Positions 7,202 through 57,770 of a stretch of 64,000 bases of DNA are shown here, piece by piece (position 1 is the first letter of the stretch; every line of letters starts with the position of its first letter). A program made the translations under genes and the position numbers. Source of the DNA: Candidatus Shapirobacteria bacterium (GTDB lineage Bacteria > Patescibacteriota > Microgenomatia > UBA12405 > BS750m-G30). The stretch is from positions 78,401-142,400 of the forward strand of contig JBDRHA010000006.1 of assembly GCA_043817235.1 (NCBI GenBank). The letters are read 5' to 3'. Below the pieces are notes generated by a model. That model was not told where the DNA came from. It saw nothing but the letters and a program-made list of their open reading frames with translations, and searched no databases.

Positions 7202-7570
7202 ATGGCACCAATTAAACTGTATGTTGGCAATTTGCCTTGGTCAGCTACTTCTGATGAGCTCGGACAAAAATTTTCCGAAGCCGGTCAGGTAGTTTCGGCC
7301 CAAGTCATTACCGACCGTTATTCCGGTCGCTCCCGCGGCTTTGGCTTCGTGGAAATGGAATCCCAAGAAGCGGCAGATAAAGCTATTGAGATGTTCAATG
7401 GCAAAGACTTTAACGGACGGGAAATTACCGTTAATATCGCTAAACCTCGTGAAGATAGTGATCGAGGTGGAAACGATCGCGGTGGACGGGATGAGCGAAT
7501 GGCTTCGGAACCAGAACCGGCTCAAGCAGAGCCTGCTTCCGAGGAAATCGAGATTCAGCCCGAAGAATAA
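7202..7570 (+). CDS. RRM-domain RNA-binding protein
   Basis: RNP-2 'LYVGNL' and RNP-1 'RGFGFVEM' motifs. Gly/Arg-rich acidic tail. Confidence 0.85.
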   Translation: MAPIKLYVGNLPWSATSDELGQKFSEAGQVVSAQVITDRYSGRSRGFGFVEMESQEAADKAIEMFNGKDFNGREITVNIAKPREDSDRGGNDRGGRDERMASEPEPAQAEPASEEIEIQPEE

Positions 7571-7590
7571 AGCTAATTTATTCTTAATAG

Positions 7591-7636
7591 AAAACCCCCC
7601 TTGCGTTCCGCTGGTGCGGGACTTCGGGGGGTTTTT
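7591..7636. terminator. Bidirectional rho-independent terminator between the RRM gene (+) and tRNA-Thr (-)
   Basis: A-run, then a CCCCCC...GGGGGG stem with an internal GTTCCGC/GCGGGAC helix, then a T-run. Confidence 0.55.
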
Positions 7637-7640
7637 GATG

Positions 7641-7713
7641 AGCCCAGAAGCGGGCTTGAACCGCTGGCCTTTCCCTTACCAAGGGAGTGCTCTACCAACT
7701 GAGCTACCTGGGC
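7641..7713 (-). tRNA. tRNA-Thr (anticodon GGT)
   Basis: Folded by hand into a cloverleaf. Acceptor GCCCAGG/TCTGGGC (one G-U pair), D arm GCTC/GAGC, anticodon loop TTGGTAA, T arm AGCGG-TTCAAGC-CCGCT. 73 nt. Confidence 0.8.
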
Positions 7714-7759
7714 AAAAAGTAATTAATTTTATCATTTTTATCATAATAGTTTCTTGTTT

Positions 7760-7966
7760 ATTGGTAATCGCGCGTTATTGCGATCCGCCATCTTGGCGGA
7801 TGGTTAGCAGAACCATCGGGATTTCTTGCAATGACATGTTTCCGGTCATCCCGAGTGCATCCGAGGGATCTTTGGTATTAAGAAATCCCTTTTTTAATTA
7901 CAAAAGATCTTTCGACTTCGCCCCGCGAGTCGCGGGGCTTCGCTCAAGATGACCATTCAATGACAT
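7760..7966. repeat. Cluster of hairpin-rich dispersed repeat units ('caatgacat', 'gtcatcccgag..ccgagggatc', 'cgacttcgccccgcgagtcgcggggcttcgctc..gatgac')
   Basis: The same units recur at 13.3, 17.7, 27.3, 29.2, 34.7 and 57.7 kb, always intergenic. Confidence 0.7.
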
Positions 7967-9784: not shown

Positions 9785-9842
9785 TTTCTCAAAACATCGG
9801 AATTATACAGGAAAACAGGGGAGATGTGTAGTTATGGGATTA
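9785..9842. repeat. Direct repeat copy 1 (about 55 bp, 'ttttc..aaa..acggaattatacaggaaaa.ag.g.agatgtgtagttat.ggatt')
   Basis: About 88% identical to 11376-11434. Each copy abuts the stop codon of a minus-strand gene. Confidence 0.7.
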
Positions 9843-10628
9843 AATAGTCTGATCAGGGAGCATAAATTCTTTTTCGTCTACCTTTATGTTTAATACGGTC
9901 GCTTTGTAGCTTAATTCAGTATTCATATTGCCATAATATGGCGTGTTTGCAGATAATATAATAGACATTTCCAGAGGGATAGCAGTTTGTTTGTCTAAAC
10001 AAAAAGTTATTTCTGCCTTATCCGGTTCTGTTTTGTAAACTTCCCTATAATATCTTAGGTTTTCCGAAAGACTACTTTCCACCATTATTACATCTGCTTC
10101 AAAAAGACGGCACTTTCTGTTAATAATTTCTTTTTCTCCCAGATATGAAAGATTTTCGTTGGTTAAATGGTTGAAGACCAGGCTTAATCTATCTTCAGGT
10201 ATTACATTTTCATTATTCGATAATGGATCTTTAGTTAGGGAATGTGGTTGACAAGTTAATGGGCCTATTGGATGGGCTCCGGTATTATCACTTATAAATA
10301 CTGGAGTAATACAGGAAAAGCTGCCTTCTGGTATTTCATAATATAGCTGAGTTGAGCCATCTTGAATAACATTGTCCTTCAGATGTTTCGTGATGGTTTT
10401 TGTTTTGCCATTTGAGCGAAAAACATCTAAAAGTTTAATTTCAGGGATTTCAGTGGGTTTGGAGCTATAAGCGACTTCATAATTTATTTCATATTCAACC
10501 GCTTGCTTATTAAGAGTACTTTGTAGAACGAATCGAGGCATTCGAACATAATTTATTATCCCAGCGACGGAAATTACAGCGAAAGAAAAAACAGCTATTT
10601 TAAGCATTAAGAAAAAATGTTTTCTCAT
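9840..10628 (-). CDS. Secreted/anchored hypothetical protein
   Basis: N-terminal signal-anchor 'MRKHFFLMLKIAVFSFAVISVAGII'. 262 aa. Confidence 0.5.
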   Translation of the reverse strand: MRKHFFLMLKIAVFSFAVISVAGIINYVRMPRFVLQSTLNKQAVEYEINYEVAYSSKPTEIPEIKLLDVFRSNGKTKTITKHLKDNVIQDGSTQLYYEIPEGSFSCITPVFISDNTGAHPIGPLTCQPHSLTKDPLSNNENVIPEDRLSLVFNHLTNENLSYLGEKEIINRKCRLFEADVIMVESSLSENLRYYREVYKTEPDKAEITFCLDKQTAIPLEMSIILSANTPYYGNMNTELSYKATVLNIKVDEKEFMLPDQTI

Positions 10629-11375: not shown

Positions 11376-11434
11376 ATTTTTCAAATTAACGGAATTATAC
11401 AGGAAAATAGAGAAGATGTGTAGTTATAGGATTT
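11376..11434. repeat. Direct repeat copy 2
   Basis: See copy 1 at 9785-9842. Confidence 0.7.
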
Positions 11435-11723
11435 ATGAAGTATCTTTTAGATACCTATTTAACATGGATGTTATTGATCTTCTTCCATAGCCGCTTTTTA
11501 GATATATTTCTCTTTTTTTAGCATCAATTCTGTTTAGAAAAGCTTCGTAAAATATTAGTTTGTAGGGTAGGTAGGGTTTTGTGGCTTGGCTTTTGCCTTT
11601 ATTATGTTGGTTAAGTCGTTTAATTAAGTTGGTAGTATAGCCAATATATAAACTTTTATTTTTCTGACTCTGTAAGATGTATACGTAATAAAACATGGCG
11701 AGACGTAATAAATTGCTTTGCAA
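11433..11723 (-). CDS. GIY-YIG nuclease-superfamily small protein (UPF0213/YhbQ-like)
   Basis: 'YYVYIL...SLYIGYTTNLIKRLNQHN' GIY...YIG motif with conserved R and N. Confidence 0.75.
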   Translation of the reverse strand: MQSNLLRLAMFYYVYILQSQKNKSLYIGYTTNLIKRLNQHNKGKSQATKPYLPYKLIFYEAFLNRIDAKKREIYLKSGYGRRSITSMLNRYLKDTS

Positions 11724-12913: not shown

Positions 12914-13171
12914 TTAACTTTTTGTACCCAAATTATCTAGTATTTTTCTTAGTTGTCTTCGCCCCCAAGAGGTTTTGAAATGACTTTCACGACTAAAAGC
13001 CTCATGCTTATCTGCGTACTCTTCTTTATACCAGAGGATAAATGGAATTCTATTCTTTGTAGATTCTACTTGACCTGAGTTATGCAGCTTAATTCTTTTT
13101 TCTAAATCTTTTGTACATCCTACGTATGTTCTTTTATCTTTGATACTTTTAAGGACATAGACGGTATACAT
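12914..13171 (-). CDS. GIY-YIG nuclease-superfamily small protein (paralog of 11433-11723)
   Basis: 'VYVLKS..KRTYVGCTKDLEKRIKLHN'. Confidence 0.75.
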   Translation of the reverse strand: MYTVYVLKSIKDKRTYVGCTKDLEKRIKLHNSGQVESTKNRIPFILWYKEEYADKHEAFSRESHFKTSWGRRQLRKILDNLGTKS

Positions 13172-13219: not shown

Positions 13220-13292
13220 AGCTGGGGGTGGGACTTGAACCCACAACCTAACGCTTACAAAGCGATTGCTCTGCCGATTGAGCTACCCCAGC
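13220..13292 (-). tRNA. tRNA-Thr (anticodon TGT)
   Basis: Acceptor GCTGGGG/CCCCAGC, D arm GCTC/GAGC, anticodon loop TTTGTAA, T arm GTGGG-TTCAAGT-CCCAC. One U-U mismatch in the anticodon stem. Confidence 0.65.
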
Positions 13293-13300
13293 AAGATAGT

Positions 13301-13422
13301 TTTGTCATCGCGAGTCCCGCAGTTGCGGGACGTGGCGATCCCCATGAAACTGCAAATCCCGCACGGAATTGCTTCGTCTCCCGATGTTACGTCGGGATCC
13401 TCGCAATGACATGGACTTTGAT
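13301..13422. repeat. Dispersed hairpin repeat copy ('gtcatcgcgagtcccgcagttgcgggacgtg...tcctcgcaatgacat')
   Basis: Same family as 27395-27436 and 17705-17800. Confidence 0.7.
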
Positions 13423-13753
13423 AATTATATCAATTGAAAGAATAAAAGGAGGAGTGCTGGCCCCGCTGCGTCGGGTGCCTATAAAATCTCGCCCGAAGGC
13501 ACTAGAAAAGATTTTCCTCGTTAGAGAAAAAGTGGGTGGACTGCTCCCCGTCGCCAAGGCTATGGGGAGACTCCGTCCTCCCGAAAAAGATTTCGTGGAG
13601 GAAAAACTTCTTTCCTAGTTGTTAAAGCCTTTATCAGGCGAGACAATTCTATTTTAGATTGTTGTTGTCTCCTTGTCAAGTAGCATCTTTCCTGCTTATT
13701 GACAAGCAAAAAAATAAATCTTAAACTAAGACTATTATGGTATTAGTTTTTAA

Positions 13754-16861: not shown

Positions 16862-17672
16862 GCTTTTTCCCCTCCAGCTGTACTTGATCAATAATTAATC
16901 TTCCTTCTTTTAGATGCGTTTTTAGGATTTTTAATCTTTTTTCTTGATTATCTATTTTAATCTTAGTATATATTCCTGGCCAGGGGGCATAGGCTCTTCT
17001 TTTTAAATCTATTTCTTTACTCATTTCTTTTAAACTTAGACAGCCGTCTTCTTTCTTGATCATTTTGGTAAAAGTAGCTTGGGAGTGATTTTGAGGACGG
17101 GGTTTTATTTTTTCGGCCAAATATTTTTTGATTATTTGAGGAAGTTTTTGACTGGCGAAATTAAATAAGCGCTGATAAAGCTCGCCGGCTGTATCTTGGG
17201 GAAGTATTTTTTCTCTAAATTGGGCTAAAATTGGACCGTGGTCGCAAAGGGCATCCATTTTAATAAAAGTTACTCCGGTAATTTTTTCTTGATTAAGAAT
17301 TGCTGCTTGAGCAGGGGAGGGGCCGCGATATTTAGGGAGCAAAGAAGGGTGAATATTAATAATTCCGCGGGAAAAGAGATTTAGCCAAAGCTTTGGAATA
17401 ATCTTGCCGTAAACACAGCAAACTCCTAATTTAAAGCCAGGGCTAACCTTGTCATTGCGAGGAGGGAAGGTTTTTTGATCTAATTTATCCGGTTTAATAA
17501 TTTTTAAGTTCTTTTTTTGAGCAAAATCAGCAAGGGGACTGGGGGTTAATTTTAAGCCGCGGCCGGCCGGCCGATCAGGAGCAGCCACTACTAGTATCCT
17601 ATAGTCATGTTTAAGTAAAGATACTAAGCAGGGAATCGAATATTCACTTGACCCAAAAAAGACTAAGCTCAT
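16821..17672 (-). CDS. fmt: Methionyl-tRNA formyltransferase
   Basis: 'IINIHPSLLPKYRGPSP' formyltransferase motif. Converges on rpmB with an overlapping 3' end. Confidence 0.9.
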   Translation of the reverse strand: MSLVFFGSSEYSIPCLVSLLKHDYRILVVAAPDRPAGRGLKLTPSPLADFAQKKNLKIIKPDKLDQKTFPPRNDKVSPGFKLGVCCVYGKIIPKLWLNLFSRGIINIHPSLLPKYRGPSPAQAAILNQEKITGVTFIKMDALCDHGPILAQFREKILPQDTAGELYQRLFNFASQKLPQIIKKYLAEKIKPRPQNHSQATFTKMIKKEDGCLSLKEMSKEIDLKRRAYAPWPGIYTKIKIDNQEKRLKILKTHLKEGRLIIDQVQLEGKKPISFSDFLKSEEL

Positions 17673-17704: not shown

Positions 17705-17800
17705 TGTCATTGCGAATCCCGATGGTTCTTTTAGCCATCGGGGCGTGGCAATCTTTCCAACGGGATTGCTTCCCCCGCAACGGCGGGGTCGCAATGACAT
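17705..17800. repeat. Dispersed hairpin repeat copy ('gtcattgcgaatcccgatgg...ggggtcgcaatgacat')
   Basis: gtcattgcga...tcgcaatgac terminal inverted repeats. Confidence 0.7.
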
Positions 17801-17851: not shown

Positions 17852-17858
17852 GAATATT

Positions 17859-17884
17859 GTTTCGATGTATCGATACATCGAAAC
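17859..17884. promoter_or_regulatory. Perfect 26-bp palindrome GTTTCGATGTATC|GATACATCGAAAC (copy 1 of 2)
   Basis: Identical 26-mer at 32393-32418. About 70% identity extends roughly 25 bp upstream in both copies. Confidence 0.6.
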
Positions 17885-18089
17885 ATGCAGAAGAAATTAC
17901 TGATGAGCTTGCTATTATTGCCGCTAAGCAGCTACTAGAATCTTTAGAGAACACAGCGGCAGGAAAGCCGCCCGAATTTAACCCAGCCATAATCCGTTTA
18001 TTTGAACCTGCGCCAGTTTGTGAAAAATCTTCGTCAAGAGCAAGAAGACTTTGACAAAAAGCGAAAATTTATGTATAAGTTAGCTTATA

Positions 18090-26068: not shown

Positions 26069-27225
26069 TAGTATTTTTTGCCTTTGAGTTGGTCAGGAAG
26101 GAGCGACTTGCTTTTGTTTGGATAGGCTTCGTAATTTTTGCCATAGCCGGCTTTCTTCATCAATTTAGTGACCGGATTACGCAAGCTTAAAGGAATGGGG
26201 AGATTGCCAAATTGGCGAACATCATTTAGAGCTTTCATATAGGCATTATAGGCTCGGCGGTCTTTTTTCGCTTGGGCTAGAAATACTACTCCAGCCGCCA
26301 AATTTTCCTGGCATTCGGGCAGACCGACTTGCTGACAGGCTTGGAAAACAGCGTTAGCTACAACCAGAGCGGTAGGCGAGGCGACATCTTCGGAAGCAAA
26401 AACAACCATCCGGCGGGCAATAAAAAGTGGATCTTCACCGCTGACGATCATTCGGGCTAAATAATAAAGAGCCGCGTCCACTTGAGAAGCGCGCATGCAT
26501 TTAATAAAAGCGCTAATGGTGTTGTAGTGTTCTTCTCCGGTTTTATCGTAGCGTAAAGTTGTTGAGGAGAGAATTTTTTTAATTGTTTTTTCATCGATTA
26601 GCGCTGATTTTTTGGTTAGGCCATAGGCCTGCTCAATCAAGTTTAAACCTACTCGAGCATCACCATTGCTAATATTGGCGACTAATTCTTTAGCCGGTGA
26701 GGTTATTTTCTTTTTGAGTTTTTTTAATCCTCTTTTAATAATAGTATTTATTTCTTTTCCTGATAAAGGATTAAAAATCAAGGTTTGGCTGCGGGAAAGA
26801 AGAGGGGAAATTACATAAAAAGAGGGGTTTTCCGTAGTAGCGCTGATTAAGATGATTTTTCCAGATTCTACGGGTGAAAGGAGCACATCCTGCTGGGCCT
26901 TGGAAAAGCGATGAATTTCGTCAATAAAGATTAAGGTGGGGAGAAAAAGGGGAGCGCTAAAAATTTTTTGAAGCTCGGATTTTTTGGCCGAAACAGCCGA
27001 GAATTCTTGAAAACTAATACCTAAAGAATGAGCAATAATTCGGGCCAAAGTAGTTTTTCCGACCCCGGGCGGACCCCAGAAAACTAAAGAAGGAAAAGAA
27101 AGATTTTTTTTCAAAAGCAGTTTTCGAATATACCCATTTCTGCCGGTTAAGTGCTCTTGCCCGACAAATTCGTTTAGGCTTTTAGGTCTAATTAAATCAG
27201 CAAGCGGCTGCATAGAAGCAATCAT
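26065..27225 (-). CDS. rarA: Replication-associated recombination protein A (AAA+ ATPase RarA/MgsA)
   Basis: Walker A 'GPPGVGKTT', Walker B 'LFIDEIHR', RarA C-terminal helical domain. Confidence 0.85.
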   Translation of the reverse strand: MIASMQPLADLIRPKSLNEFVGQEHLTGRNGYIRKLLLKKNLSFPSLVFWGPPGVGKTTLARIIAHSLGISFQEFSAVSAKKSELQKIFSAPLFLPTLIFIDEIHRFSKAQQDVLLSPVESGKIILISATTENPSFYVISPLLSRSQTLIFNPLSGKEINTIIKRGLKKLKKKITSPAKELVANISNGDARVGLNLIEQAYGLTKKSALIDEKTIKKILSSTTLRYDKTGEEHYNTISAFIKCMRASQVDAALYYLARMIVSGEDPLFIARRMVVFASEDVASPTALVVANAVFQACQQVGLPECQENLAAGVVFLAQAKKDRRAYNAYMKALNDVRQFGNLPIPLSLRNPVTKLMKKAGYGKNYEAYPNKSKSLLPDQLKGKKYY

Positions 27226-27263
27226 ATCACAAACCCGAACAAAAGGCGAAGATCAAGCGGGGT

Positions 27264-27430
27264 AGTCATTCCGAGCGAGTCCCGAGTACTCGGGAGGAGT
27301 CGAGGAATCTTCGGAATTAAAAAGGAAAGATCCCTCGACTGCGCCCCGCGACTCGCGGGGCTGCGCCCGGGATGACAAAAATAATGTCATTGCGAGCCCC
27401 GCAGCTGCGGGACGTGACAATCTTTCCAGA
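27264..27430. repeat. Composite dispersed hairpin repeat (three units)
   Basis: 'gtcattccgagcgagtcccgag..', 'cgactgcgccccgcgactcgcggggctgcgcccgggatgaca', 'gtcattgcgagccccgcagctgcgggacgtgacaatc'. Confidence 0.7.
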
Positions 27431-27472
27431 TGAGTTGTCTATTTATATCTGTTATTATAAGAACGAACAAAG

Positions 27473-29146
27473 ATGAAATATTCAAAAATTTTTGGCAAGA
27501 CAGTAAAAAGTGTACCGGCAGATGCGGTAGCAGTTAGTCATAAATATTTATGGCAAGGCGGTTTTATTCGCCGCTTTTCGACCGGCCGCTACGGTTTTTT
27601 GCCGTTAGGCTATCGGGTATGGCTAAAAATCTACCGGATTATTCAGGAAGAAATGGACAAAATCGGCTGTCAGCAGTTGGTCGTGCCCACTTTGCATCCG
27701 GTAGAAGTTTGGAAAAAAACCAGCCGAGACGAGGCTTTTGGCGAGGAAATGCTGGTTGTGGCTGACCACTACGGCAATGAGTTTATTTTGGGAGCGACGG
27801 CCGAGGGAATGATGGTCGAGCTGGTTAAAATGTTTTCGCCTTCTTATAAAGATCTGCCGATTGATATTTATGAATTTTCCTCAAAGTTTCGGGATGACAA
27901 GCGGCCGCGAGGAGGGATATTGCGGGTTAGGGAATTTATGATGAAAGATGCTTATAATTTTTGCGCGAACGAAAAGCAACTCCAAAAAGGCTACGAAAAA
28001 TATTTTCAATCTTACTTGCGGATTGCCAAAAAGCTGGAACTGGCGGTTATCCCGGTGGAAGCAGATTCTGGGGCAATCGGCGGCAGTTTATCGCATGAAT
28101 TTTTGATGGAAGGGGATTTTGGCGACCAGACCTTTTTTGTTTGTGAGAAATGCGGATATGCGGCGAATATTGAAAAAGCGGAATTTTACCGTGAACCCCT
28201 TAACCTGCAGGAAAAAGAAAAGACTTTTAAGATTATTGATCAGCCGGAATGGGTGTGCACTATGGCTGACAACCAAAAGCATTACAAAGAGCCGCCTTGG
28301 CGCTATTTAAAAAATGTTGTTTACAAAGATAAAAAAGGGAAAATTATTATTGCCTCGGTGCGGGGCGATCAAGAGGTTAATGAAATTAAACTAAAAAGAG
28401 CTTTAGGGCTTGATTCTTTGGAGCCGGCGACAGATAGGGATCTAAAAAAAATAGGGACAAAGCCCGGTCACGTTCATTCCTGGGGAATTAAGGGGGCTGT
28501 TTATATTGGCGATTTGGGCTTAAAAGCGGTGAAAAATTTTATTGGCGGCCAAAAAGAGAAAAAAACAGATTCTGTTAATGTTAATTACGGTCGGGATTTC
28601 AAGTACGATTTATTGGCGGACATAGTGGATGCGAAAGCCGGCGATAAATGCGCTTTTTGCAAAGGAAAACTGGTGGAAAAAAAGGGAGTCGAGTGGGGCC
28701 ATACTTTTAAAATCGACCGTTTTTATACCAAAAAACAGGAGGGTTATTTTACTAATAAAAAAGGTGAGCAAAAATATCTTTGGATGGGCTCTTATGGCAT
28801 TGGCATAGATCGCAGTTTAGCGACAATCGTTGAGGCCCATCATGACAATAGGGGTATTATCTGGCCCGAGTCGGTAGCTCCTTTTAAATATCACCTTATT
28901 GGTCTTGACCTTCATGAAAAGGAAGTTAAAGATCGGGCCGAGAGAGTTTATGAGAATTTAGTTCAAAAAGGAGAAGAAGTTTTGTATGATGATCGGGAAA
29001 ATATTAGCGCCGGCGAAAAATTTGCGGACGCCGATTTAATTGGCATTCCTTATCGCTTGGTTATTAGCAAAAAAACCAAAGAAAAAATTGAAGTAAAAAA
29101 GCGAGCGCAAAAAACTTCTAAATTGACTAGCCTTTCTCAGATTTAG
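27473..29146 (+). CDS. proS: Prolyl-tRNA synthetase (class II)
   Basis: Class II motifs. 'RGGILRVREFMMKDAY' motif 2 region. Anticodon-binding and C-terminal zinc-binding domain. Confidence 0.9.
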   Translation: MKYSKIFGKTVKSVPADAVAVSHKYLWQGGFIRRFSTGRYGFLPLGYRVWLKIYRIIQEEMDKIGCQQLVVPTLHPVEVWKKTSRDEAFGEEMLVVADHYGNEFILGATAEGMMVELVKMFSPSYKDLPIDIYEFSSKFRDDKRPRGGILRVREFMMKDAYNFCANEKQLQKGYEKYFQSYLRIAKKLELAVIPVEADSGAIGGSLSHEFLMEGDFGDQTFFVCEKCGYAANIEKAEFYREPLNLQEKEKTFKIIDQPEWVCTMADNQKHYKEPPWRYLKNVVYKDKKGKIIIASVRGDQEVNEIKLKRALGLDSLEPATDRDLKKIGTKPGHVHSWGIKGAVYIGDLGLKAVKNFIGGQKEKKTDSVNVNYGRDFKYDLLADIVDAKAGDKCAFCKGKLVEKKGVEWGHTFKIDRFYTKKQEGYFTNKKGEQKYLWMGSYGIGIDRSLATIVEAHHDNRGIIWPESVAPFKYHLIGLDLHEKEVKDRAERVYENLVQKGEEVLYDDRENISAGEKFADADLIGIPYRLVISKKTKEKIEVKKRAQKTSKLTSLSQI

Positions 29147-29160
29147 GGTAGGGATTATTG

Positions 29161-29340
29161 AGAGGATTTGTCATCCCGAGTGTAACCGAGGGATCTTTCT
29201 CTTGTTTAATTTCCAAAAGATTCCTCGACTTCGCCCCGCGAATCGCGGGGCTTCGCTCGGAATGACAGATTAAATAGTCATCCTGAGCATAGCCGAAGGA
29301 TCTTTCTATCTTGACTCGCTCGCAATGACATGAGTCTTTT
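29161..29340. repeat. Composite dispersed hairpin repeat (four units)
   Basis: 'gtcatcccgagtgtaaccgagggatc', 'cgacttcgccccgcgaatcgcggggcttcgctcggaatgaca', 'gtcatcctgagcatagccgaaggatc', 'cgctcgcaatgacat'. Confidence 0.7.
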
Positions 29341-29353
29341 ACTATAATAAATC

Positions 29354-30283
29354 ATGTCCAAAGACCTGCCTTATTATTTAGCTTTTAACTTTTTTGGCAA
29401 AATCGACCCATCGCGCTTTAAAGTTCTTCTTGACTATTTTGGCTCAGCAAAAAGGCTTTGGGAAGCGACCCGAGCGGAGCTAAAATCCACGGGATTATCT
29501 GGCCGCCTTATTAATGATTTTTTAGAATTCCAATCGATTTTTGACCCGCAAAAAGTTAATTTTACTAAAGAAAACTGGAATATCCCTTATGATAATTTCT
29601 CCTGGTATAAAGAAATTAAAGATTACCAAAAATGCTTAGCAGGCAAGATCACTATCCTAACCTGGCAAGACAAACATTACCCCAAAGTTTTAAAAAATAT
29701 TATTAATCCGCCGCCGGTTTTGTATGTTAAAGGCAAACTGCCTTCTTCAAAAAAGGCTTTGGCCGTTATTGGTAGCCGCAGTGCGAGCGTTTATGGCCGG
29801 CAAAATACCCAAAAGTTTGTTCAAGATTTAGTAAAAAATAAGATTACTATAATTTCTGGCTTGGCCCGGGGAATAGACGCGATTGCGCACCAAACGGCTC
29901 TTGATAATAACGGCCAAACTATTGCCGTTTTAGGATCAGGAATTAACGTTGCTTATCCCTATCAAAATAAAAATATTTACTTAAAAATTATTAACGGCGG
30001 GGGAGCGGTAATTTCTGAATTTCCTCCTTTTTATCCGCCGTACGCGCCAAACTTTATCCAAAGAAACCGGATTATTTCCGGTTTGTCAAAAGCAGTTTTA
30101 GTGGTGGAGGCCGGAAAAAGATCCGGCAGCTTGGTGACGGCTCGGTTGGCAGGGGAGCAGGGTAGAGAAGTAATGGCCATTCCCGGGCCGATCAATTCGC
30201 CGCTTTCCGCTGGAACTTCTTATCTTTTATCCCAAGGAGCAAAACTGGTGACAAAAGTGGAAGATATCTTAGAAGAGCTCTAG
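29354..30283 (+). CDS. dprA: DNA-processing protein A (DprA/Smf)
   Basis: Rossmann-like core 'AVIGSRSAS...ISGLARGIDAIAHQTALD...GQTIAVLGSGI'. Confidence 0.85.
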   Translation: MSKDLPYYLAFNFFGKIDPSRFKVLLDYFGSAKRLWEATRAELKSTGLSGRLINDFLEFQSIFDPQKVNFTKENWNIPYDNFSWYKEIKDYQKCLAGKITILTWQDKHYPKVLKNIINPPPVLYVKGKLPSSKKALAVIGSRSASVYGRQNTQKFVQDLVKNKITIISGLARGIDAIAHQTALDNNGQTIAVLGSGINVAYPYQNKNIYLKIINGGGAVISEFPPFYPPYAPNFIQRNRIISGLSKAVLVVEAGKRSGSLVTARLAGEQGREVMAIPGPINSPLSAGTSYLLSQGAKLVTKVEDILEEL

Positions 30284-32374: not shown

Positions 32375-32392
32375 AACAAAGAGCAAGAGACT

Positions 32393-32418
32393 GTTTCGAT
32401 GTATCGATACATCGAAAC
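32393..32418. promoter_or_regulatory. Perfect 26-bp palindrome GTTTCGATGTATCGATACATCGAAAC (copy 2 of 2)
   Basis: Identical to 17859-17884. Lies between the TraB-like gene and topA. Confidence 0.6.
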
Positions 32419-32646
32419 ACTTGGGGCATTGCATCTTGCTGCAACTCTTTTAGCCTTGACTCTGTTTTAGAAAGCAAATTTTAGTAGAATTGAGGGATGG
32501 CCGAGAAAAAACATTTCCATCAAAAACTAGTTAGGGATAAGATTCCTCAAGTGATAGATGCGGCGGGTGGAGAATATGAAACGAGAATTTTTTTGGCTTG
32601 ATCTTCAGGCAAAGCGGGAAAGTAAATTTGCTATAGATTAGTAAAT

Positions 32647-34680: not shown

Positions 34681-34775
34681 GTCATCGCGATCCCGTGTGG
34701 GATTACAATGACAAGGCAGATTGCCGCGTCACTCCGTTCCTCGCAATGACAATACTTTCGCAATGACATTTGTTC
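34681..34775. repeat. Dispersed hairpin repeat copy ('gtcatcgcgatcccgtgtgggattacaatgaca...ctcgcaatgacaatactttcgcaatgacat')
   Basis: Same 'gtcat(c/t)gcga...cgcaatgaca' ends as the other copies. Confidence 0.7.
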
Positions 34776-37871: not shown

Positions 37872-38672
37872 TTATATAGATTCCCACAGGAAATGATCGT
37901 GCGGAGGATCAAGGTCCTGGTTGAAATGTATCATGTGCTGGAATTCATGAACCAGAACAGATTTGAAGTCTTCGGACGCTAGGCCTATCCCATCAACCTG
38001 AGAAAGATTGATGTAGAACATCTCTCTTTCATTGGACCTAAGCTCTCCCCACCGCCCTGCGTCGACTGGATCGGGATATTCGTCTACCATGAAAAACACA
38101 CCAAGCCAATTGGGGTTGGTCACATCGTGGTTCTGTTGCAATAGAATTGTGAGCCTCTCGTCACCATCTCTTCCGGGTTTCCATTCGCCCCCGAACGTTG
38201 CCACAACCTTCTCATAGTCCTTGTCGAAGGCGCTAGCGAGGGCATCGAGAGCCTCTTCTGACACAGCCTGACCGTTTTCCACATACAGGTAAGCATGCGT
38301 ACCCGTAACCTGCAGAGTAGCAGTGATTTGCATCTGCGTGTATGTGCCATTGCTGCTCGTCAGGACCCAAAACGGCCTCTGCTCACCTACCTGTTCGGTT
38401 ATCACTCGTCCGGCCGCGTCTACTTTCCCCGCCGCCGAGAGTTCTGCAAGTGTTGGATCTGGACAGGGCACATTCCTGCTAACCCAATCAGCCAGCTCAT
38501 GCAACCTGGCCGTCCCACAAAACGCCCCCGCATTAAGTCCAGAGGCAGCAGGCAAGGAGCTAGGCTCTTGAGCCCAAACTGGCCAGTCAATCGATAGGAG
38601 AATGAATGAGACCATAACCAACGCAAACACAGAACCAACGGAGCCGAACCACTTTCTTCTTGACTGGATCAT
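37872..38672 (-). CDS. Secreted zinc metalloprotease-like protein (HExxH), probably C-terminally truncated at the island junction
   Basis: N-terminal TM/signal 'VFALVMVSFILLSIDWPVWA'. 'HEFQHMIH' motif only about 17 aa from the stop. The GC-rich coding sequence ends within two codons of the AT-rich flank. Confidence 0.45.
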   Translation of the reverse strand: MIQSRRKWFGSVGSVFALVMVSFILLSIDWPVWAQEPSSLPAASGLNAGAFCGTARLHELADWVSRNVPCPDPTLAELSAAGKVDAAGRVITEQVGEQRPFWVLTSSNGTYTQMQITATLQVTGTHAYLYVENGQAVSEEALDALASAFDKDYEKVVATFGGEWKPGRDGDERLTILLQQNHDVTNPNWLGVFFMVDEYPDPVDAGRWGELRSNEREMFYINLSQVDGIGLASEDFKSVLVHEFQHMIHFNQDLDPPHDHFLWESI

Positions 38673-38851
38673 TGCGATGCCTCCTGTGTGCTAATGGAAG
38701 CTAGAGAAGTACGGCAATAACGACCAAACAAGGAATGCAAGCGGCATGCATAGCCCATCGGCCGCCATCGAACCCACCGAGCTCTACACGGTTACTGTGG
38801 CGAGGTCGCAGCCTTGACCTTTCCTCAGCAAATTATCTCACGTGCTAGCAG

Positions 38852-39343
38852 CTAAGGGCTTGTCCCTGGCGAACCCAGGATCTCGTAACTCTGCACTTCG
38901 ATCAAACTTTCCTCGATGTAGCCTCTTGCTTGAATGTTCACGCTGCCCTCGCTAGCTAGCTCCCGCAACTCCTTTGCGTACTCACCAACAATCCCGTAAT
39001 TTCTTCCCTCGGGAGTCTCCAAGGCTAGCACAGCAAAAGGCTCATTTCCCGCTAATCGAATGCGGCCAACTACTGCCACTAGCTCCCTGTCTTCATCGGT
39101 AACAGGTGAAGGGCTCGAAGCCGGGGATGGGAGTGATTCTCGGATAGGCATCACGATGGTGCAACACACTAGGATCAAAGCCGATAACAATGCCACTAGC
39201 AAGACAAGTGCTGCCGCGACACGAAATCTCACGAGGCTCCGCATGGCTCTTTCGAATCCCCTGTTGTCCACAGGAATGATATTACCAATCTGGAGGTCAA
39301 GAATCAACGCGAGCGCCCACCACTCAGCAATCGCGTTGCGCAA
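38852..39343 (-). CDS. Hypothetical membrane-anchored protein (GC-rich island)
   Basis: TM 'AALVLLVALLSALILVCCTIVM'. The strand assignment is uncertain because high GC yields long ORFs on both strands. Confidence 0.3.
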   Translation of the reverse strand: MRNAIAEWWALALILDLQIGNIIPVDNRGFERAMRSLVRFRVAAALVLLVALLSALILVCCTIVMPIRESLPSPASSPSPVTDEDRELVAVVGRIRLAGNEPFAVLALETPEGRNYGIVGEYAKELRELASEGSVNIQARGYIEESLIEVQSYEILGSPGTSP

Positions 39344-39783
39344 GGCTTGTTACTTGTTAGAGGAACGACGTTTACCCAAGCAGGGATTGTCGACCGTGAT
39401 GGCAAGGAAGGAAGGGACGTTCCGCAGTCGACTAAGGTGAAGAAGAGCAAGATGTACGATAGGTTCTGCTCTTCAAAAAACCGCGCCTCATCGAGGCACC
39501 TACCAATCATTGAAAGACTACCACAGAACCTGATTCCTGTCAAATTTGCCATGGAGAGTGCGGGAAAGCCAGAACAACCTTCTGCACCCGGCCACAGAGC
39601 CAAAAGTACCACCCGTTCCCGAAAAGCCGGCTACTCCTATGGCCTGCTCGCGGTCACTTGTGTAGCATACACTCATAGAAGTACGCTCGCCCGCCGTTTT
39701 CCAGCACTCTCCCACGGTGGGATCTCACACCCACCCTCACACCGCATCTTCAAACTGATCCGTAGCCACCCACCGAGACCCAA

Positions 39784-40419
39784 TCAGTCACTGATCATCC
39801 CCATCCGCTCCAAATCCTTCAAAGCGGACCTATACGACAACCCCTTCACTTCGGCATACAGGGAGACGGCATTGCCAACCCTGAAATCGTGAAAGCAGAC
39901 CCACCTTCCCACTCCCCCTGGATTTGGATAGACAGCAAAGGAGTGGTGAGATTCCTCATGAAGCGGGCACAGGCCCGTGTAATAGGCTCCCCTATCCTCG
40001 AGTTGAGTGAAGAGGCGGGCCACCGCCACCACGTCCGCCTCGGGCACATCAATCGCTTCTCTCCTTCTCCGCCCGGGCCTGCGCTCCGAGACCTCGGCAA
40101 CAGCCTTCCCCACAGCATCCCTATCGACCCTTACCACCTTGTCCAAGTAGTCGAGCTGCTCGCTTAGATTCCTTCCCACCCGCTCCAACGACTCTGGATC
40201 CAGGAAACCATAGCGCTCTCCGGTCACCCGATGTACGCCCAGAGGACCTCGCACCAGGGACCCGTAGCCTCTCGCCGAGATCCTGTCTTGCTTGGGGCTA
40301 CAACTTTTTGGGTGATTGAAAATAAAGAGATTGTAAAAATGTATTGGAGCTGGGAAACAATGGCTAAATATCCAAGGGAAATGTTTTCCTCGCCCCGCCT
40401 TCTTTATTGGGCGGTGCAT
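39784..40419 (-). CDS. CHC2-type (DNA-primase-like) zinc-finger protein; probably a primase N-terminal remnant. The real start is likely well inside this ORF.
   Basis: 'CPLHEESHHSFAVYP...WVCFHDFRVGNAVSLYAEVKGLSYRSAL' matches the zf-CHC2 signature (CPFHxExxPSFxV...CFGCG...). The motif sits at the C-terminal end of the ORF and no primase catalytic domain follows. Confidence 0.4.
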   Translation of the reverse strand: MHRPIKKAGRGKHFPWIFSHCFPAPIHFYNLFIFNHPKSCSPKQDRISARGYGSLVRGPLGVHRVTGERYGFLDPESLERVGRNLSEQLDYLDKVVRVDRDAVGKAVAEVSERRPGRRRREAIDVPEADVVAVARLFTQLEDRGAYYTGLCPLHEESHHSFAVYPNPGGVGRWVCFHDFRVGNAVSLYAEVKGLSYRSALKDLERMGMISD

Positions 40420-40587
40420 TCAGTTGTCCCGGTCATTTTTCTTGCTGTTGTGCCGACCCAGGTTATTATGAACTATTTGGAGTGGCCGCTGATTATAAGT
40501 GCTTTTTTTGTAACGCTAACTCTGGCTGTTTTGAGCAAAAAAGCTTGGCAAGCGGGGGTAAAAAGATACAGCGGCGTTTCGACTTAA
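40339..40587 (+). CDS. Small membrane protein (2 TM)
   Basis: Start is taken at the internal Met 'MYWSWETMAKYP'. The 5' part of the longer ORF lies in the GC-rich island and is probably not coding. Confidence 0.35.
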   Translation: MYWSWETMAKYPREMFSSPRLLYWAVHSVVPVIFLAVVPTQVIMNYLEWPLIISAFFVTLTLAVLSKKAWQAGVKRYSGVST

Positions 40588-40626
40588 ATACTTGACAGCG
40601 TATAAAGAAAGCTTTATAATTTCATA

Positions 40627-40929
40627 ATGAATACTTTAGGTTTCTCTTTTGTTGGGAGCTATGAACTAAGAAAAGATTTGCCCCTTTTAATAAAAAGTTT
40701 AAATAAAAAAAGAGGAGAAGTAGTGGTTACACAAAAAGGCAAGCCGGCGGCGGTTCTATTGTCTTTGAAGAGATATTCAGAGTTGAACTTGTTGACTGAG
40801 GAGTTAGAGGAGGCAATTAGAGAGATGGCTGATAAGCGAGAACTCCAAGAGCTCTTGCGGGAAAGAGAAGAGATTAAAAAAGGAAAAGGAAAAGAGGCTG
40901 AGGATTTATTTAAAGAACTGGGAATCTGA
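40627..40929 (+). CDS. Type II antitoxin, Phd/YefM family
   Basis: 'VVVTQKGKPAAVLLSLKRYSEL' Phd/YefM fold signature. Directly precedes the toxin gene. Confidence 0.7.
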   Translation: MNTLGFSFVGSYELRKDLPLLIKSLNKKRGEVVVTQKGKPAAVLLSLKRYSELNLLTEELEEAIREMADKRELQELLREREEIKKGKGKEAEDLFKELGI

Positions 40930-41187
40930 ATGTATAGAGCATTGTTCGGCCGGAAAGCGCAAAAATCCTTAAGAAAAATTCCCAAAAGATATCAAATTAA
41001 AGTTAAAGAAGCTGTACTCAAACTAAAAGACAACCCCTTTTGTTATGGCACAATTAAGCTTTCGGGTTATTCTGTAGCTGAGTATCGTCATCGAGTAGGA
41101 GATTATCGAATTCTTTTTGATATTTGGGAAGAAAAAGAGAGAATTTTAATTTTAGATATCAAAAGAAGGACCTCTACTACTTATTAA
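40930..41187 (+). CDS. Type II toxin, RelE/ParE (YoeB-like) family
   Basis: 'YRHRVGDYRILFDIWEEKERILILDIKRR' RelE/ParE signature. 85 aa. Start abuts the antitoxin stop. Confidence 0.7.
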   Translation: MYRALFGRKAQKSLRKIPKRYQIKVKEAVLKLKDNPFCYGTIKLSGYSVAEYRHRVGDYRILFDIWEEKERILILDIKRRTSTTY

Positions 41188-42247
41188 TTAACTCTTCCAA
41201 AATCCGCCACCTTCGTTTTTTTTCCGGTGGAGAAACATCGTCTTTAAGCTTGGTCGCTATTGTTCCTGGGCGAGGGGAGTATTTGGCTAAATATGCTTTT
41301 TGGAAGCCGATTTTTTTAGCTAGCTTAACCGTATTTTGAAATTGTTTTTTTGTTTCTGTGGGAAAGCCGACAATAACATCTGTGGTAAATAATACTTCGG
41401 GAATTGCCCTTTTAATTTTATTAACTAAATTTAGATATTCTTTAGCCATATAGGGCCGGTTCATTTTTTTTAAAATAGCATCATCTCCGGACTGCAAGGG
41501 CAAGTGAATCTCTCGGCTGATATTTTTATTTTCGGCAATCACCTTAATCAGCTCATCAGAAAAATCCCAAGGGTTGGCCGAAAGAAAACTAATTTTTTTA
41601 ACGTTCTTAATTTTAGCTATTTTTTCTAAAAGCTCGGGAAAAGAAGTATTTTTTAAATCTTTTCCGTAAGAATTAATATTTTGGCCGAGCAATAATATTT
41701 CAGAAAATCCATCTTTAAGAGCTTTTTTTACTTCAGCAAATATTACTTTTTCCGGCCGGGAAATTTCTTTTCCCCGGCCAAAAGGAACAATGCAATAAGA
41801 ACAAAAGTGATTACAGCCGTTGGAAATGGGAATTAAAGCTAAATTATTTTTAGCTCTTTTTGGTTTTACTAAAAAACCAGCCAAGTCTTCGATTAAAACC
41901 ATTTTAATTTTTAGGCCAATTCTTTTTTGGAGCACTTTAAGATTTTTATGTGTTTTGTCTAAAAGCGCCCAGCCGGCCAAGCAGCCGGTTAAAATAATTT
42001 GGCCCTGATAATTTTTCTTTTTTAAGTTATTAATTAGGCCATATGCCCGATTTTCGGCTGACTTGCGGACAATACAGCTATTTATAATAATTACTTTTGC
42101 TTTCGCAATATTTTTTGTTTCTCGATGGCCTCGAGAGTTAAAAATGCTTTTTATTCTTTCCGAATCCGCCTCATTCATGGCGCAGCCAAAAGTTTTTAAG
42201 TAATAAGTTCTTATTTTATTTGCCATTAATGAGCGATAATAACACAT
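41177..42247 (-). CDS. MiaB/RimO-family radical-SAM methylthiotransferase (no TRAM domain)
   Basis: MTTase N-terminal 'YLKTFGCAMNEADSE', radical SAM 'CNHFCSYC'. 356 aa, ends before a TRAM domain. Confidence 0.75.
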   Translation of the reverse strand: MCYYRSLMANKIRTYYLKTFGCAMNEADSERIKSIFNSRGHRETKNIAKAKVIIINSCIVRKSAENRAYGLINNLKKKNYQGQIILTGCLAGWALLDKTHKNLKVLQKRIGLKIKMVLIEDLAGFLVKPKRAKNNLALIPISNGCNHFCSYCIVPFGRGKEISRPEKVIFAEVKKALKDGFSEILLLGQNINSYGKDLKNTSFPELLEKIAKIKNVKKISFLSANPWDFSDELIKVIAENKNISREIHLPLQSGDDAILKKMNRPYMAKEYLNLVNKIKRAIPEVLFTTDVIVGFPTETKKQFQNTVKLAKKIGFQKAYLAKYSPRPGTIATKLKDDVSPPEKKRRWRILEELINK

Positions 42248-57745: not shown

Positions 57746-57770
57746 TGTCATTGCGGGATCGCAATGACAC
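57746..57770. repeat. Minimal hairpin copy of the dispersed repeat ('gtcattgcgggatcgcaatgacac')
   Basis: Perfect 'gtcattgcg..cgcaatgac' inverted repeat right after the dnaX stop. Confidence 0.65.

Follow-up and report, generated by a model that had tools for sequence, protein, structure and literature searches.

Clusters of GTC-tagged hairpin repeats in a Shapirobacteria genome resemble CGTC-tagged REPs and Ssn-related motifs

Introduction

A family of short hairpin-forming repeats occupies seven loci of a 64,000-nucleotide stretch of a Candidatus Shapirobacteria genome (GenBank assembly GCA_043817235.1, contig JBDRHA010000006.1), referred to below as the window; all coordinates are positions within it. 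The comparison presented here, with two described groups of small tagged palindromes, suggests that the seven loci are probably clusters of directional, CGTC/TGTC-tagged repetitive extragenic palindromes (REPs) of the Ssn-related type, i.e. hairpins that are nicked as single-stranded DNA (ssDNA) by a small GIY-YIG nuclease of the Ssn family.

The CGTC-tagged REP superfamily was defined by Di Nocera et al. (2013; PMC3733652) on the basis of a CGTC tag, with TGTC and CCTC variants, and stems starting with A and T. These stems are 8-9 bp long, enclose loops of 4-5 nt and are followed by a short 3' tail with the consensus CCA. The elements are mostly found as head-to-head (HH) dimers with the tags on the outside, some with conserved spacers, and have no dedicated transposase; the families CGTC-1 to CGTC-4 include dRS3 of Neisseria and RPE-4 and RPE-6 of Rickettsia (PMC3733652).

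An oriented subset of dRS3, termed the Neisseria Transformation Sequence (NTS; CGTCATTCCCGCGMAVGCGGGAATCYRG), and its relatives across phyla, termed Ssn-related motifs (SRMs), were described by Chenal et al. (2025; PMC11893778). The ssnA gene, which encodes a single-domain GIY-YIG protein of 94 aa, has such motifs on both sides (NTS-ssnA-NTS). SsnA binds the hairpin as ssDNA only, and its cut falls a few nucleotides upstream of the tag. Binding depends chiefly on the C directly after the palindrome and cleavage on the 3 nt preceding it; the SRM loop may be removed or lengthened. In N. meningitidis, the SsnA/NTS system lowers the integration of transforming DNA that bears NTS (PMC11893778).

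Repeat family and unit structure

With at most one mismatch allowed, the window has 14 occurrences of the sequence GTCATTGCGAG, compared with a mean of 0.55 and a maximum of 3 in shuffled sequences. A structural search for GTCAT followed by three bases, a purine-rich triplet (RRV) and a perfect 5-bp closing complement within 6-60 nt returned 15 units where 1.0 were expected (maximum of 5 in 200 dinucleotide-preserving shuffles of the window). With truncated and collapsed copies included, the units number about 18 and total 641 nt, all of which fall in the 9.8% of the window without genes or tRNAs, occupying seven of the 32 intergenic gaps. Since motif and structure counts lie far above those of the shuffles and the units are confined to intergenic gaps, the repeat family is real and non-random.

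An initial annotation of this stretch had described a REP-like or MITE-like (miniature inverted-repeat transposable element) dispersed hairpin family at these seven loci. Reading of each locus found units at every one, and the units bear the defining marks of the CGTC-tagged REP and Ssn-related-motif family. The intergenic restriction that it had also proposed applies to all of the approximately 18 units, but one exact half-copy lies inside fmt (17451-17461). The three related palindromic units distinguished there are indeed hairpin repeats but form one family: 'gtcattgcgag(N)ctcgcaatgaca' corresponds to both outer ends of an inverted pair, and 'cgacttcgcc...gatgaca' is an ordinary unit seen from the opposite strand. 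Rfam at the gathering score reported four tRNAs only and no family matching the repeats, and at an E-value threshold gave only chance-level miRNA-like matches in 27000-29500; searching the literature for the exact motif gave nothing but unrelated primers.

Each unit consists of (T)GTC, a 5-bp stem arm ATNNN, GAG, an insert of 6-40 nt, CGA/GTG/GAA, the closing arm NNNAT, a C and, usually, TTT. All 14 full units carry the unpaired 5' tag GTC, preceded by T in ten, G in two and A in two, and in all 14 the first two stem positions are A-T and T-A. Positions 3-5 of the stem covary (T-A/C-G; G-C/C-G/T-A; C-G/T-A), with Watson-Crick pairs at 69 of the 70 stem positions. The closing arm is directly followed by C in 12 of the 14, and the tail beyond this C runs TTT and then mixed bases, not CA. 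Above the basal stem lies a purine-rich internal loop, with GAG on the 5' side and CGA, GTG or GAA on the 3' side; the insert mostly forms a 6-11-bp hairpin of its own, and inserts are unrelated between subtypes. Predicted RNA folds, suggested as a check in the initial annotation, agree with predicted ssDNA folds in giving a two-tier hairpin, with RNA stability z-scores down to -4. The units and their remnants are as follows.

7777..7835, minus strand: long unit GTC-ATTGC-AAG, two inner hairpins, GCAAT; next base A instead of C
7845..7869, plus strand: short unit GTC-ATCCC-GAG-tgcatc-CGA-GGGAT(C); forms a tags-outward pair with 7907-7953, of which it is the left half
7907..7953, minus strand: long unit GTC-ATCTT-GAG-cgaag-CCCCGCGActCGCGGGG-cgaagt-CGA-AAGAT(C)
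7955..7965, minus strand: tag-end duplicate, truncated (cattcaATGACa)
13304..13339, plus strand: unit GTC-ATCGC-GAG-hairpin-GTG-GCGAT(C); left member of a tags-outward pair; located directly upstream of tRNA-Thr(tgt)
13368..13410, minus strand: unit GTC-ATTGC-GAG-hairpin-GAA-GCAAT(T); right half of the pair with 13304-13339
17451..17461, plus strand: isolated exact half-unit GTCATTGCGAG, antisense within fmt, in-frame translation PPRNDK; status uncertain
17706..17752, plus strand: unit GTC-ATTGC-GAA-long hairpin-GTG-GCAAT(C); between the divergent starts of fmt and ORF 18090
17765..17798, minus strand: unit GTC-ATTGC-GAC-hairpin-GAA-GCAAT(C); right half of the pair with 17706-17752
27265..27308, plus strand: unit GTC-ATTCC-GAG-hairpin-CGA-GGAAT(C); between the divergent starts of rarA/mgsA and proS
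27330..27376, minus strand: long unit GTC-ATCCC-GGG-cgcag-CCCCGCGAgtCGCGGGG-cgcagt-CGA-GGGAT(C)
27386..27421, plus strand: unit GTC-ATTGC-GAG-hairpin-GTG-ACAAT(C); single C·A stem mismatch
29170..29194, plus strand: short unit GTC-ATCCC-GAG-tgtaac-CGA-GGGAT(C); 24 nt past the proS stop codon
29220..29266, minus strand: long unit GTC-ATTCC-GAG-cgaag-CCCCGCGAttCGCGGGG-cgaagt-CGA-GGAAT(C)
29277..29301, plus strand: short unit GTC-ATCCT-GAG-catagc-CGA-AGGAT(C)
29306..29329, minus strand: truncated unit, tag and ATTGCGAGCGAG, without closing arm; fourth position of the cluster 29170-29329; 25 nt ahead of the dprA start
34681..34712, no strand assigned: degenerate collapsed tags-outward palindrome GTCAT-CGCGA-TCCCgtgtGGGA-TTACA-ATGAC; 7 nt past the topA stop codon
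34720..34750, minus strand: unit GTC-ATTGC-GAG-gaacggagtgac-GCG-GCAAT(C)
34751..34767, minus strand: tag-end duplicate, truncated (GTCATTGCGAAAGTAT)
57747..57768, no strand assigned: minimal collapsed tags-outward palindrome (T)GTCATTGCGGGATCGCAATGAC(A); 8 nt past the dnaX stop codon

Every one of the seven loci contains a tags-outward inverted pair, i.e. an HH dimer resembling a REPIN (REP doublet forming hairpins), or a collapsed pair. The collapsed pairs are 57747-57768 and 34681-34712, with one hairpin in common per pair. Because the alignment of 7845-7953 with 29170-29266 spans both pairs completely, spacer included, the pair itself appears to be the copied entity. No target-site duplication was evident at the pair ends of the seven loci. 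The half-unit within fmt may be the remnant of an intragenic insertion; its PPRNDK translation falls in what we take to be the loop where Fmt usually has GRG.

At 7955-7965 and 34751-34767, a short duplicated tag end (..CAATGACA) lies on the tag side of a complete unit. By analogy with the cutting position of SsnA-type enzymes, which is on the same side, these duplicates may be repair footprints.

Occurrence elsewhere and linkage to a small GIY-YIG nuclease

The pattern GTCATTGCGAG-N(4-34)-GCAATC has at least 120 matches in IMG/VR, and a stricter pattern ending in ...CGNRGCAATC has at least 120 in the GTDB species genomes. Among the GTDB matches listed, the unit type GTCATTGCGAG-[hairpin]-CG(H)(R)GCAATC is spread over more than 12 phyla, with Buchanan-, Doudna- and other Patescibacteria among its carriers. 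Hosts among these matches include Alpha- and Gammaproteobacteria, Chloroflexota, Planctomycetota, Desulfobacterota, Oscillospiraceae and Bacteroidota, as well as Cyanobacteria, Zixibacteria, Nitrospirota, Helicobacter and several Patescibacteria; GTCATTGCGAGCGAAGCGAAGCAATC is the commonest unit among the matches listed. Over a wider set of 202 copies, conservation of the CG ahead of (H)(R)GCAAT is 92-95%, GTC is preceded by T in 56% and by C in 32%, and the stem is followed on the 3' side by C or T at +1 and mostly C at +2. Four Patescibacteria loci (L136, L140, L181 and L188) combine different stem types in tags-outward pairs, as in the window. Units of the GTCATTGCGAG type are also frequent in IMG/VR contigs (L001-L120) encoding capsid- and portal-like proteins, reaching 15 copies in 13 kb in L074 and 8 copies in 6.5 kb in L078.

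Open reading frames (ORFs) were clustered around units from 120 IMG/VR loci and 120 GTDB genome loci. The IMG/VR clusters comprised phage structural genes only; those from GTDB comprised only housekeeping genes and one cluster of small GIY-YIG proteins, whose genes lie 0-30 nt from units in L208, L192 and L216. In a reciprocal test, an alignment of the proteins from these three loci was used to search metagenome contigs, giving 80 loci chosen by protein alone. Units were found at most 200 bp upstream of the GIY-YIG gene in 63 of 78 loci and at most 200 bp downstream in 65 of 76. Both sides were occupied in 54 of 74 loci, compared with none of 138 control ORFs from the same loci, and the background elsewhere in these loci was 0.42 units per kb. 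A typical locus reads GTCATTGCGAG...GCAATC, 10-25 nt, ATG...stop, GATTGC...CTCGCAATGAC, the stop codon often abutting the unit.

The profile of the unit-flanked GIY-YIG proteins gives 92 bits to L003, an IMG/VR relative with canonical NTS-type motifs on its flanks, and this match ties the proteins to the published Ssn family. The partner enzyme of the repeat family elsewhere is thus confirmed as a small GIY-YIG ssDNA nuclease, a result already published and derived independently here. A sequence search of the PDB with the GIY-YIG proteins returned UPF0213 and SLX1 chains only, matches by which the clades are not separable.

Gene neighbourhood

The genes that flank the seven loci are of the housekeeping kind: GT2, fmt, rarA/mgsA, proS, dprA, topA, a VirD4/TraG-like ATPase, dnaX, ybaB and recR. 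Two loci lie between divergent gene starts, namely 17706-17798 between fmt (minus strand) and ORF 18090 (plus strand) and 27265-27421 between rarA/mgsA (minus strand) and proS (plus strand); two lie upstream of tRNA-Thr genes and three follow co-directional stop codons. The earlier description of the copies as always situated just downstream of stop codons, and so limited to 3' regions, therefore fails for the two divergent loci, and none of the seven is between convergent protein genes, as had also been stated; a position ahead of tRNAs is correct for the two tRNA-Thr loci but not for the others.

Two clusters, 27265-27421 with three units and 29170-29329 with four, bracket proS in a motif-gene-motif layout such as is seen around Neisseria genes. 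The gene for DprA, a transformation ssDNA-processing protein, starts 25 nt past the second of these clusters.

The ORFs 7341-7952 and 13235-13618 are spurious, as had been suspected, since both cross tRNA genes and repeats; recognition of the family allows such ORFs to be cleared from the annotation. Peptides containing '...VIARSEA...' and '...LAMT...', which are common in databases, may likewise be spurious products of repeats.

The GIY-YIG genes of the window

The window itself encodes two small single-domain GIY-YIG proteins of 85-87 aa, at 11436-11696 and 12917-13171 (both minus strand), in each of which the catalytic Tyr, Tyr, Arg, His and Glu are conserved. They belong to two clades specific to the Candidate Phyla Radiation (CPR), made up of 81-95-aa single-domain GIY-YIG proteins encoded always immediately 3' of a tRNA gene or tRNA 3' fragment. 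Six homologue loci, representing five genomic contexts as two are near-identical, were inspected (L321, L323, L329, L331, L332 and L341). Both in the window and at these loci, the tRNA-linked genes lie behind conserved hairpins of their own. These are of two types, CTCGTCC-hairpin-GAGACGG, and ACGTAA..TTAACGT with G(G/A)GACGT..ACGTC(C/T)C after it, immediately ahead of the ATG; the hairpins beside the window genes are single-copy within the window. One tRNA-linked homologue overlaps the start of a PolX gene. The tRNA-linked genes look like a distinct module, possibly a mobile or homing one.

The small ATTGC..GCAAT palindromes beside 11436-11696 are situated in a loop that is not conserved, within a hairpin whose conservation has other causes. 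A 57-nt direct repeat with 86% identity is present at 9785-9841 and 11377-11433, its copies directly 3' of ORF 9840-10628 (minus strand) and of the GIY-YIG gene 11436-11696 (minus strand), respectively.

Proposed mechanism and alternative explanations

A possible mechanism can be drawn from what is published on the systems of Neisseria and Wolbachia, together with the reciprocal test, and we infer its operation in the Shapirobacteria genome from homology of the motif determinants. When the DNA becomes single-stranded during replication, repair or transformation uptake, the tagged strand would fold, and an Ssn-family GIY-YIG nuclease of about 90 aa with a single domain would bind the hairpin and nick the strand a few nucleotides to the 5' side of the tag. 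Binding would depend critically on the C that follows the stem and cutting on GTC, with the content of the loop irrelevant; the variable inner hairpins of the window units fit such an enzyme, to which loop content does not matter. The unit-gene-unit layout of the nuclease gene is reminiscent of an insertion sequence (IS) and probably seeded the dispersed copies. The likely outcome would be a local modulation of ssDNA recombination or uptake, for example at proS, which is bracketed by clusters, and at the adjoining dprA.

Several observations weigh against this assignment. The basal stem of the window units has only 5 bp and is followed by an internal loop and the 6-40-nt insert, instead of a continuous stem of 8-9 bp with a loop of 4-5 nt as in CGTC REPs. 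The published SRM pattern, HGTCWYN(0-2)YYVSBRHN(0-5)WNVSBRGN(0-2)RNCYNB, has no match in the window, where 0.16 would be expected by chance; this pattern fits canonical NTS and not GTCATTGCGAG...GCAATC, and has only two matches in the 80 nuclease-anchored loci. The short units are barely stable as ssDNA (-2.4 kcal/mol) and, because of this marginal stability, the argument for structure is based on covariation and not on energy. No canonical Ssn gene (cd10448) lies within the 64 kb, which is why activity of an Ssn-type nuclease in the Shapirobacteria genome is something that we infer only. On the Ssn-like profile, the two GIY-YIG proteins encoded in the window reach only 31 and 46 bits. They are members of CPR clades represented in many Microgenomates by proteins of 70-80% identity, and their genes are not unit-flanked; no GTCAT unit was found within about 2-4 kb of the six homologue loci.

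On these grounds (clade membership, weak profile scores and lack of flanking units) neither gene of the window is supported as encoding the cognate nuclease. The units might nevertheless be substrates of these CPR-type proteins if the latter were a divergent Ssn lineage that is no longer motif-flanked, an alternative that we judge to be quite improbable. It draws on the size, single-domain architecture and intact catalytic residues of both proteins, on profile matches that are weak but significant, and on the position of one of the genes 130 bp from the unit pair 13304-13410; two of the SsnA residues that cannot be mutated without loss of cleavage have counterparts in Tyr6 and Tyr17 of the 87-aa protein (11436-11696), and its Glu63 is one position off the third (Glu64). 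Set against this are the Microgenomates homologues, placed 3' of tRNA genes behind their own hairpins and away from GTCAT units, the unit-rich Patescibacteria loci, which are without an intact copy of these proteins, and the single-copy status in the window of the hairpins beside both genes. A role chiefly at the RNA level, with the units acting as transcription terminators or mRNA-stabilizing 3' hairpins, was the function favoured in the initial annotation and seems unlikely to us. Five of the seven loci do begin 7-24 nt past a stop codon (GT2, 7972; proS, 29146; topA, 34674; dnaX, 57739) or precede tRNA genes, the hairpins are stable as RNA (z down to -4) and many REPs have been argued to be transcribed (Di Nocera et al., 2013; PMC3733652). 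However, a consensus terminator scan reported none of the units as a hairpin with a U-tract, its only two matches in the repeat loci being inner-hairpin or tail fragments; two loci separate divergent gene starts, and both unit orientations are found inside each locus. The hairpin itself is the variable part of the unit, while the conserved unpaired tag and the 3' C correspond to the positions on which an ssDNA nuclease without RNA binding depends. A promoter scan was uninformative on the units, and any effect of the units on transcripts would be secondary. The initial annotation had also proposed that the units are recombination hotspots; in Neisseria, the effect published for such motifs is on the recombination of ssDNA entering the cell (PMC11893778).

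Movement by a transposase is the least plausible origin and would be very surprising. Short palindromes in inverted pairs, intergenic and in multiple copies, are what would be expected of classical REPs or REPINs moved by a REP-associated tyrosine transposase (RAYT) of the IS200/IS605 Y1 type, or of MITEs moved by a DDE transposase via the terminal inverted repeat TGTCATTGCGAG. The tag, however, is GTC(AT) rather than GTAG, the pair ends lack an evident target-site duplication, and no transposase domain was detected in the 34 window ORFs scanned with Pfam (about half of the approximately 68 gene-sized ORFs). No transposase family recurs in the 240 unit-anchored loci either, in agreement with the finding of Di Nocera et al. 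(2013) that no transposase is linked to CGTC REPs (PMC3733652). The gene linked to the repeats in unit-flanked loci is that of a GIY-YIG nuclease, so that the RAYT/IS200 transposase suggested earlier as a partner belongs to the wrong enzyme class.

The assignment of the seven loci to tagged REPs of the SRM type thus remains the probable one, and its biological content is incremental, with no new mechanism. It extends Ssn-type hairpin motifs to the CPR and shows that the published search pattern under-counts the family. The window also offers a set of natural variants, with constant tag and basal stem and very different inserts, which could guide studies of Ssn specificity at a time when ssDNA-cutting Ssn nucleases are under development as tools. 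More speculatively, the GTCATTGCGAG-[hairpin]-CG(H)(R)GCAATC subtype might form a separate, possibly the most widespread, SRM class, with the tRNA-linked GIY-YIG paralogues perhaps serving as working nucleases in CPR, where units have no evident canonical Ssn beside them; we regard this proposal as doubtful. If true, the separate subtype would account for many Ssn homologues reported without SRMs, and the tRNA-linked nucleases of CPR would represent a new pairing of enzyme and motif as well as a new genomic architecture of the system.

Other features of the window

The 28-nt perfect palindrome TGTTTCGATGTATCGATACATCGAAACA is present twice, at 17858-17885 upstream of ORF 18090 and at 32392-32419 upstream of topA, and looks like an operator. 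A GC-rich islet at ~37900-41200 (GC 0.535, compared with about 0.40 elsewhere) contains ORFs without Pfam matches, a CHC2 zinc-ribbon/AEP primase-like ORF at 39784-40419 (minus strand) and a Phd/ParE toxin-antitoxin pair at 40627-41187, and is probably a small integrated element. Between the repeat pair 13304-13410 and an Rrf2 regulator gene, the GC-rich intergenic region 13445-13625 folds far better than its shuffles (z of -5.3 on the minus strand and -3.4 on the plus strand). No Rfam family matched this region, which on its predicted fold is a candidate for an unannotated small RNA.

Comparison with known systems

The window units share with the CGTC REPs the GTC tag (14 of 14, often as TGTC) and the A-T, T-A start of the stem (14 of 14), together with the HH dimer arrangement, multiple copies, an intergenic location with occasional intragenic copies and no association with a transposase. 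The two differ in the stem architecture discussed above and agree in part in the short 3' tail, in which the window units have C at +1 (12 of 14) and then TTT and the CGTC REPs a CCA-like sequence. The reported hosts of CGTC REPs belong to five phyla, with no CPR among them. As the CGTC REP consensus sequences are shown in figures only, the ATTGCGAG subtype is compared with them by description alone.

The GTAG REP/REPIN-RAYT systems offer a more distant parallel: they too consist of small tagged palindromes in intergenic inverted pairs, with ssDNA-hairpin recognition and an enzyme gene, single-copy in that case, that is flanked by repeats. They are set apart by their tag, which is GTAG and not GTCAT, and by their enzyme, an HUH Y1 transposase and not a GIY-YIG nuclease.

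With the SRM/NTS motifs, the window units have in common a directional hairpin, a (C/T)GTC tag 5' of an AT-starting stem and a C directly after the stem, a length of 20-50 nt, and a distribution of hundreds of intergenic copies over many phyla; outside the window, units of the ATTGC type flank Ssn-like genes on both sides. The SRM determinants can be recognized in the window as GTC in 14 of 14 units, the 3' C in 12 of 14 and a predicted ssDNA fold, with an inner hairpin at the position where the SRM loop is dispensable. Differences from SRMs are the basal stem of only 5 bp with a conserved GAG / CG(N)(R) internal loop above it, the second hairpin of 6-11 bp in many window units, and the fact that no SRM-ssn-SRM locus occurs within the window. 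The host is a metagenome-assembled genome of the Patescibacteria (Shapirobacteria), a group that is not mentioned in the main text of Chenal et al. (2025; PMC11893778). The repeat type is therefore one that is already known, and the Shapirobacteria example adds a new host group and a two-tier hairpin that the published search pattern misses.

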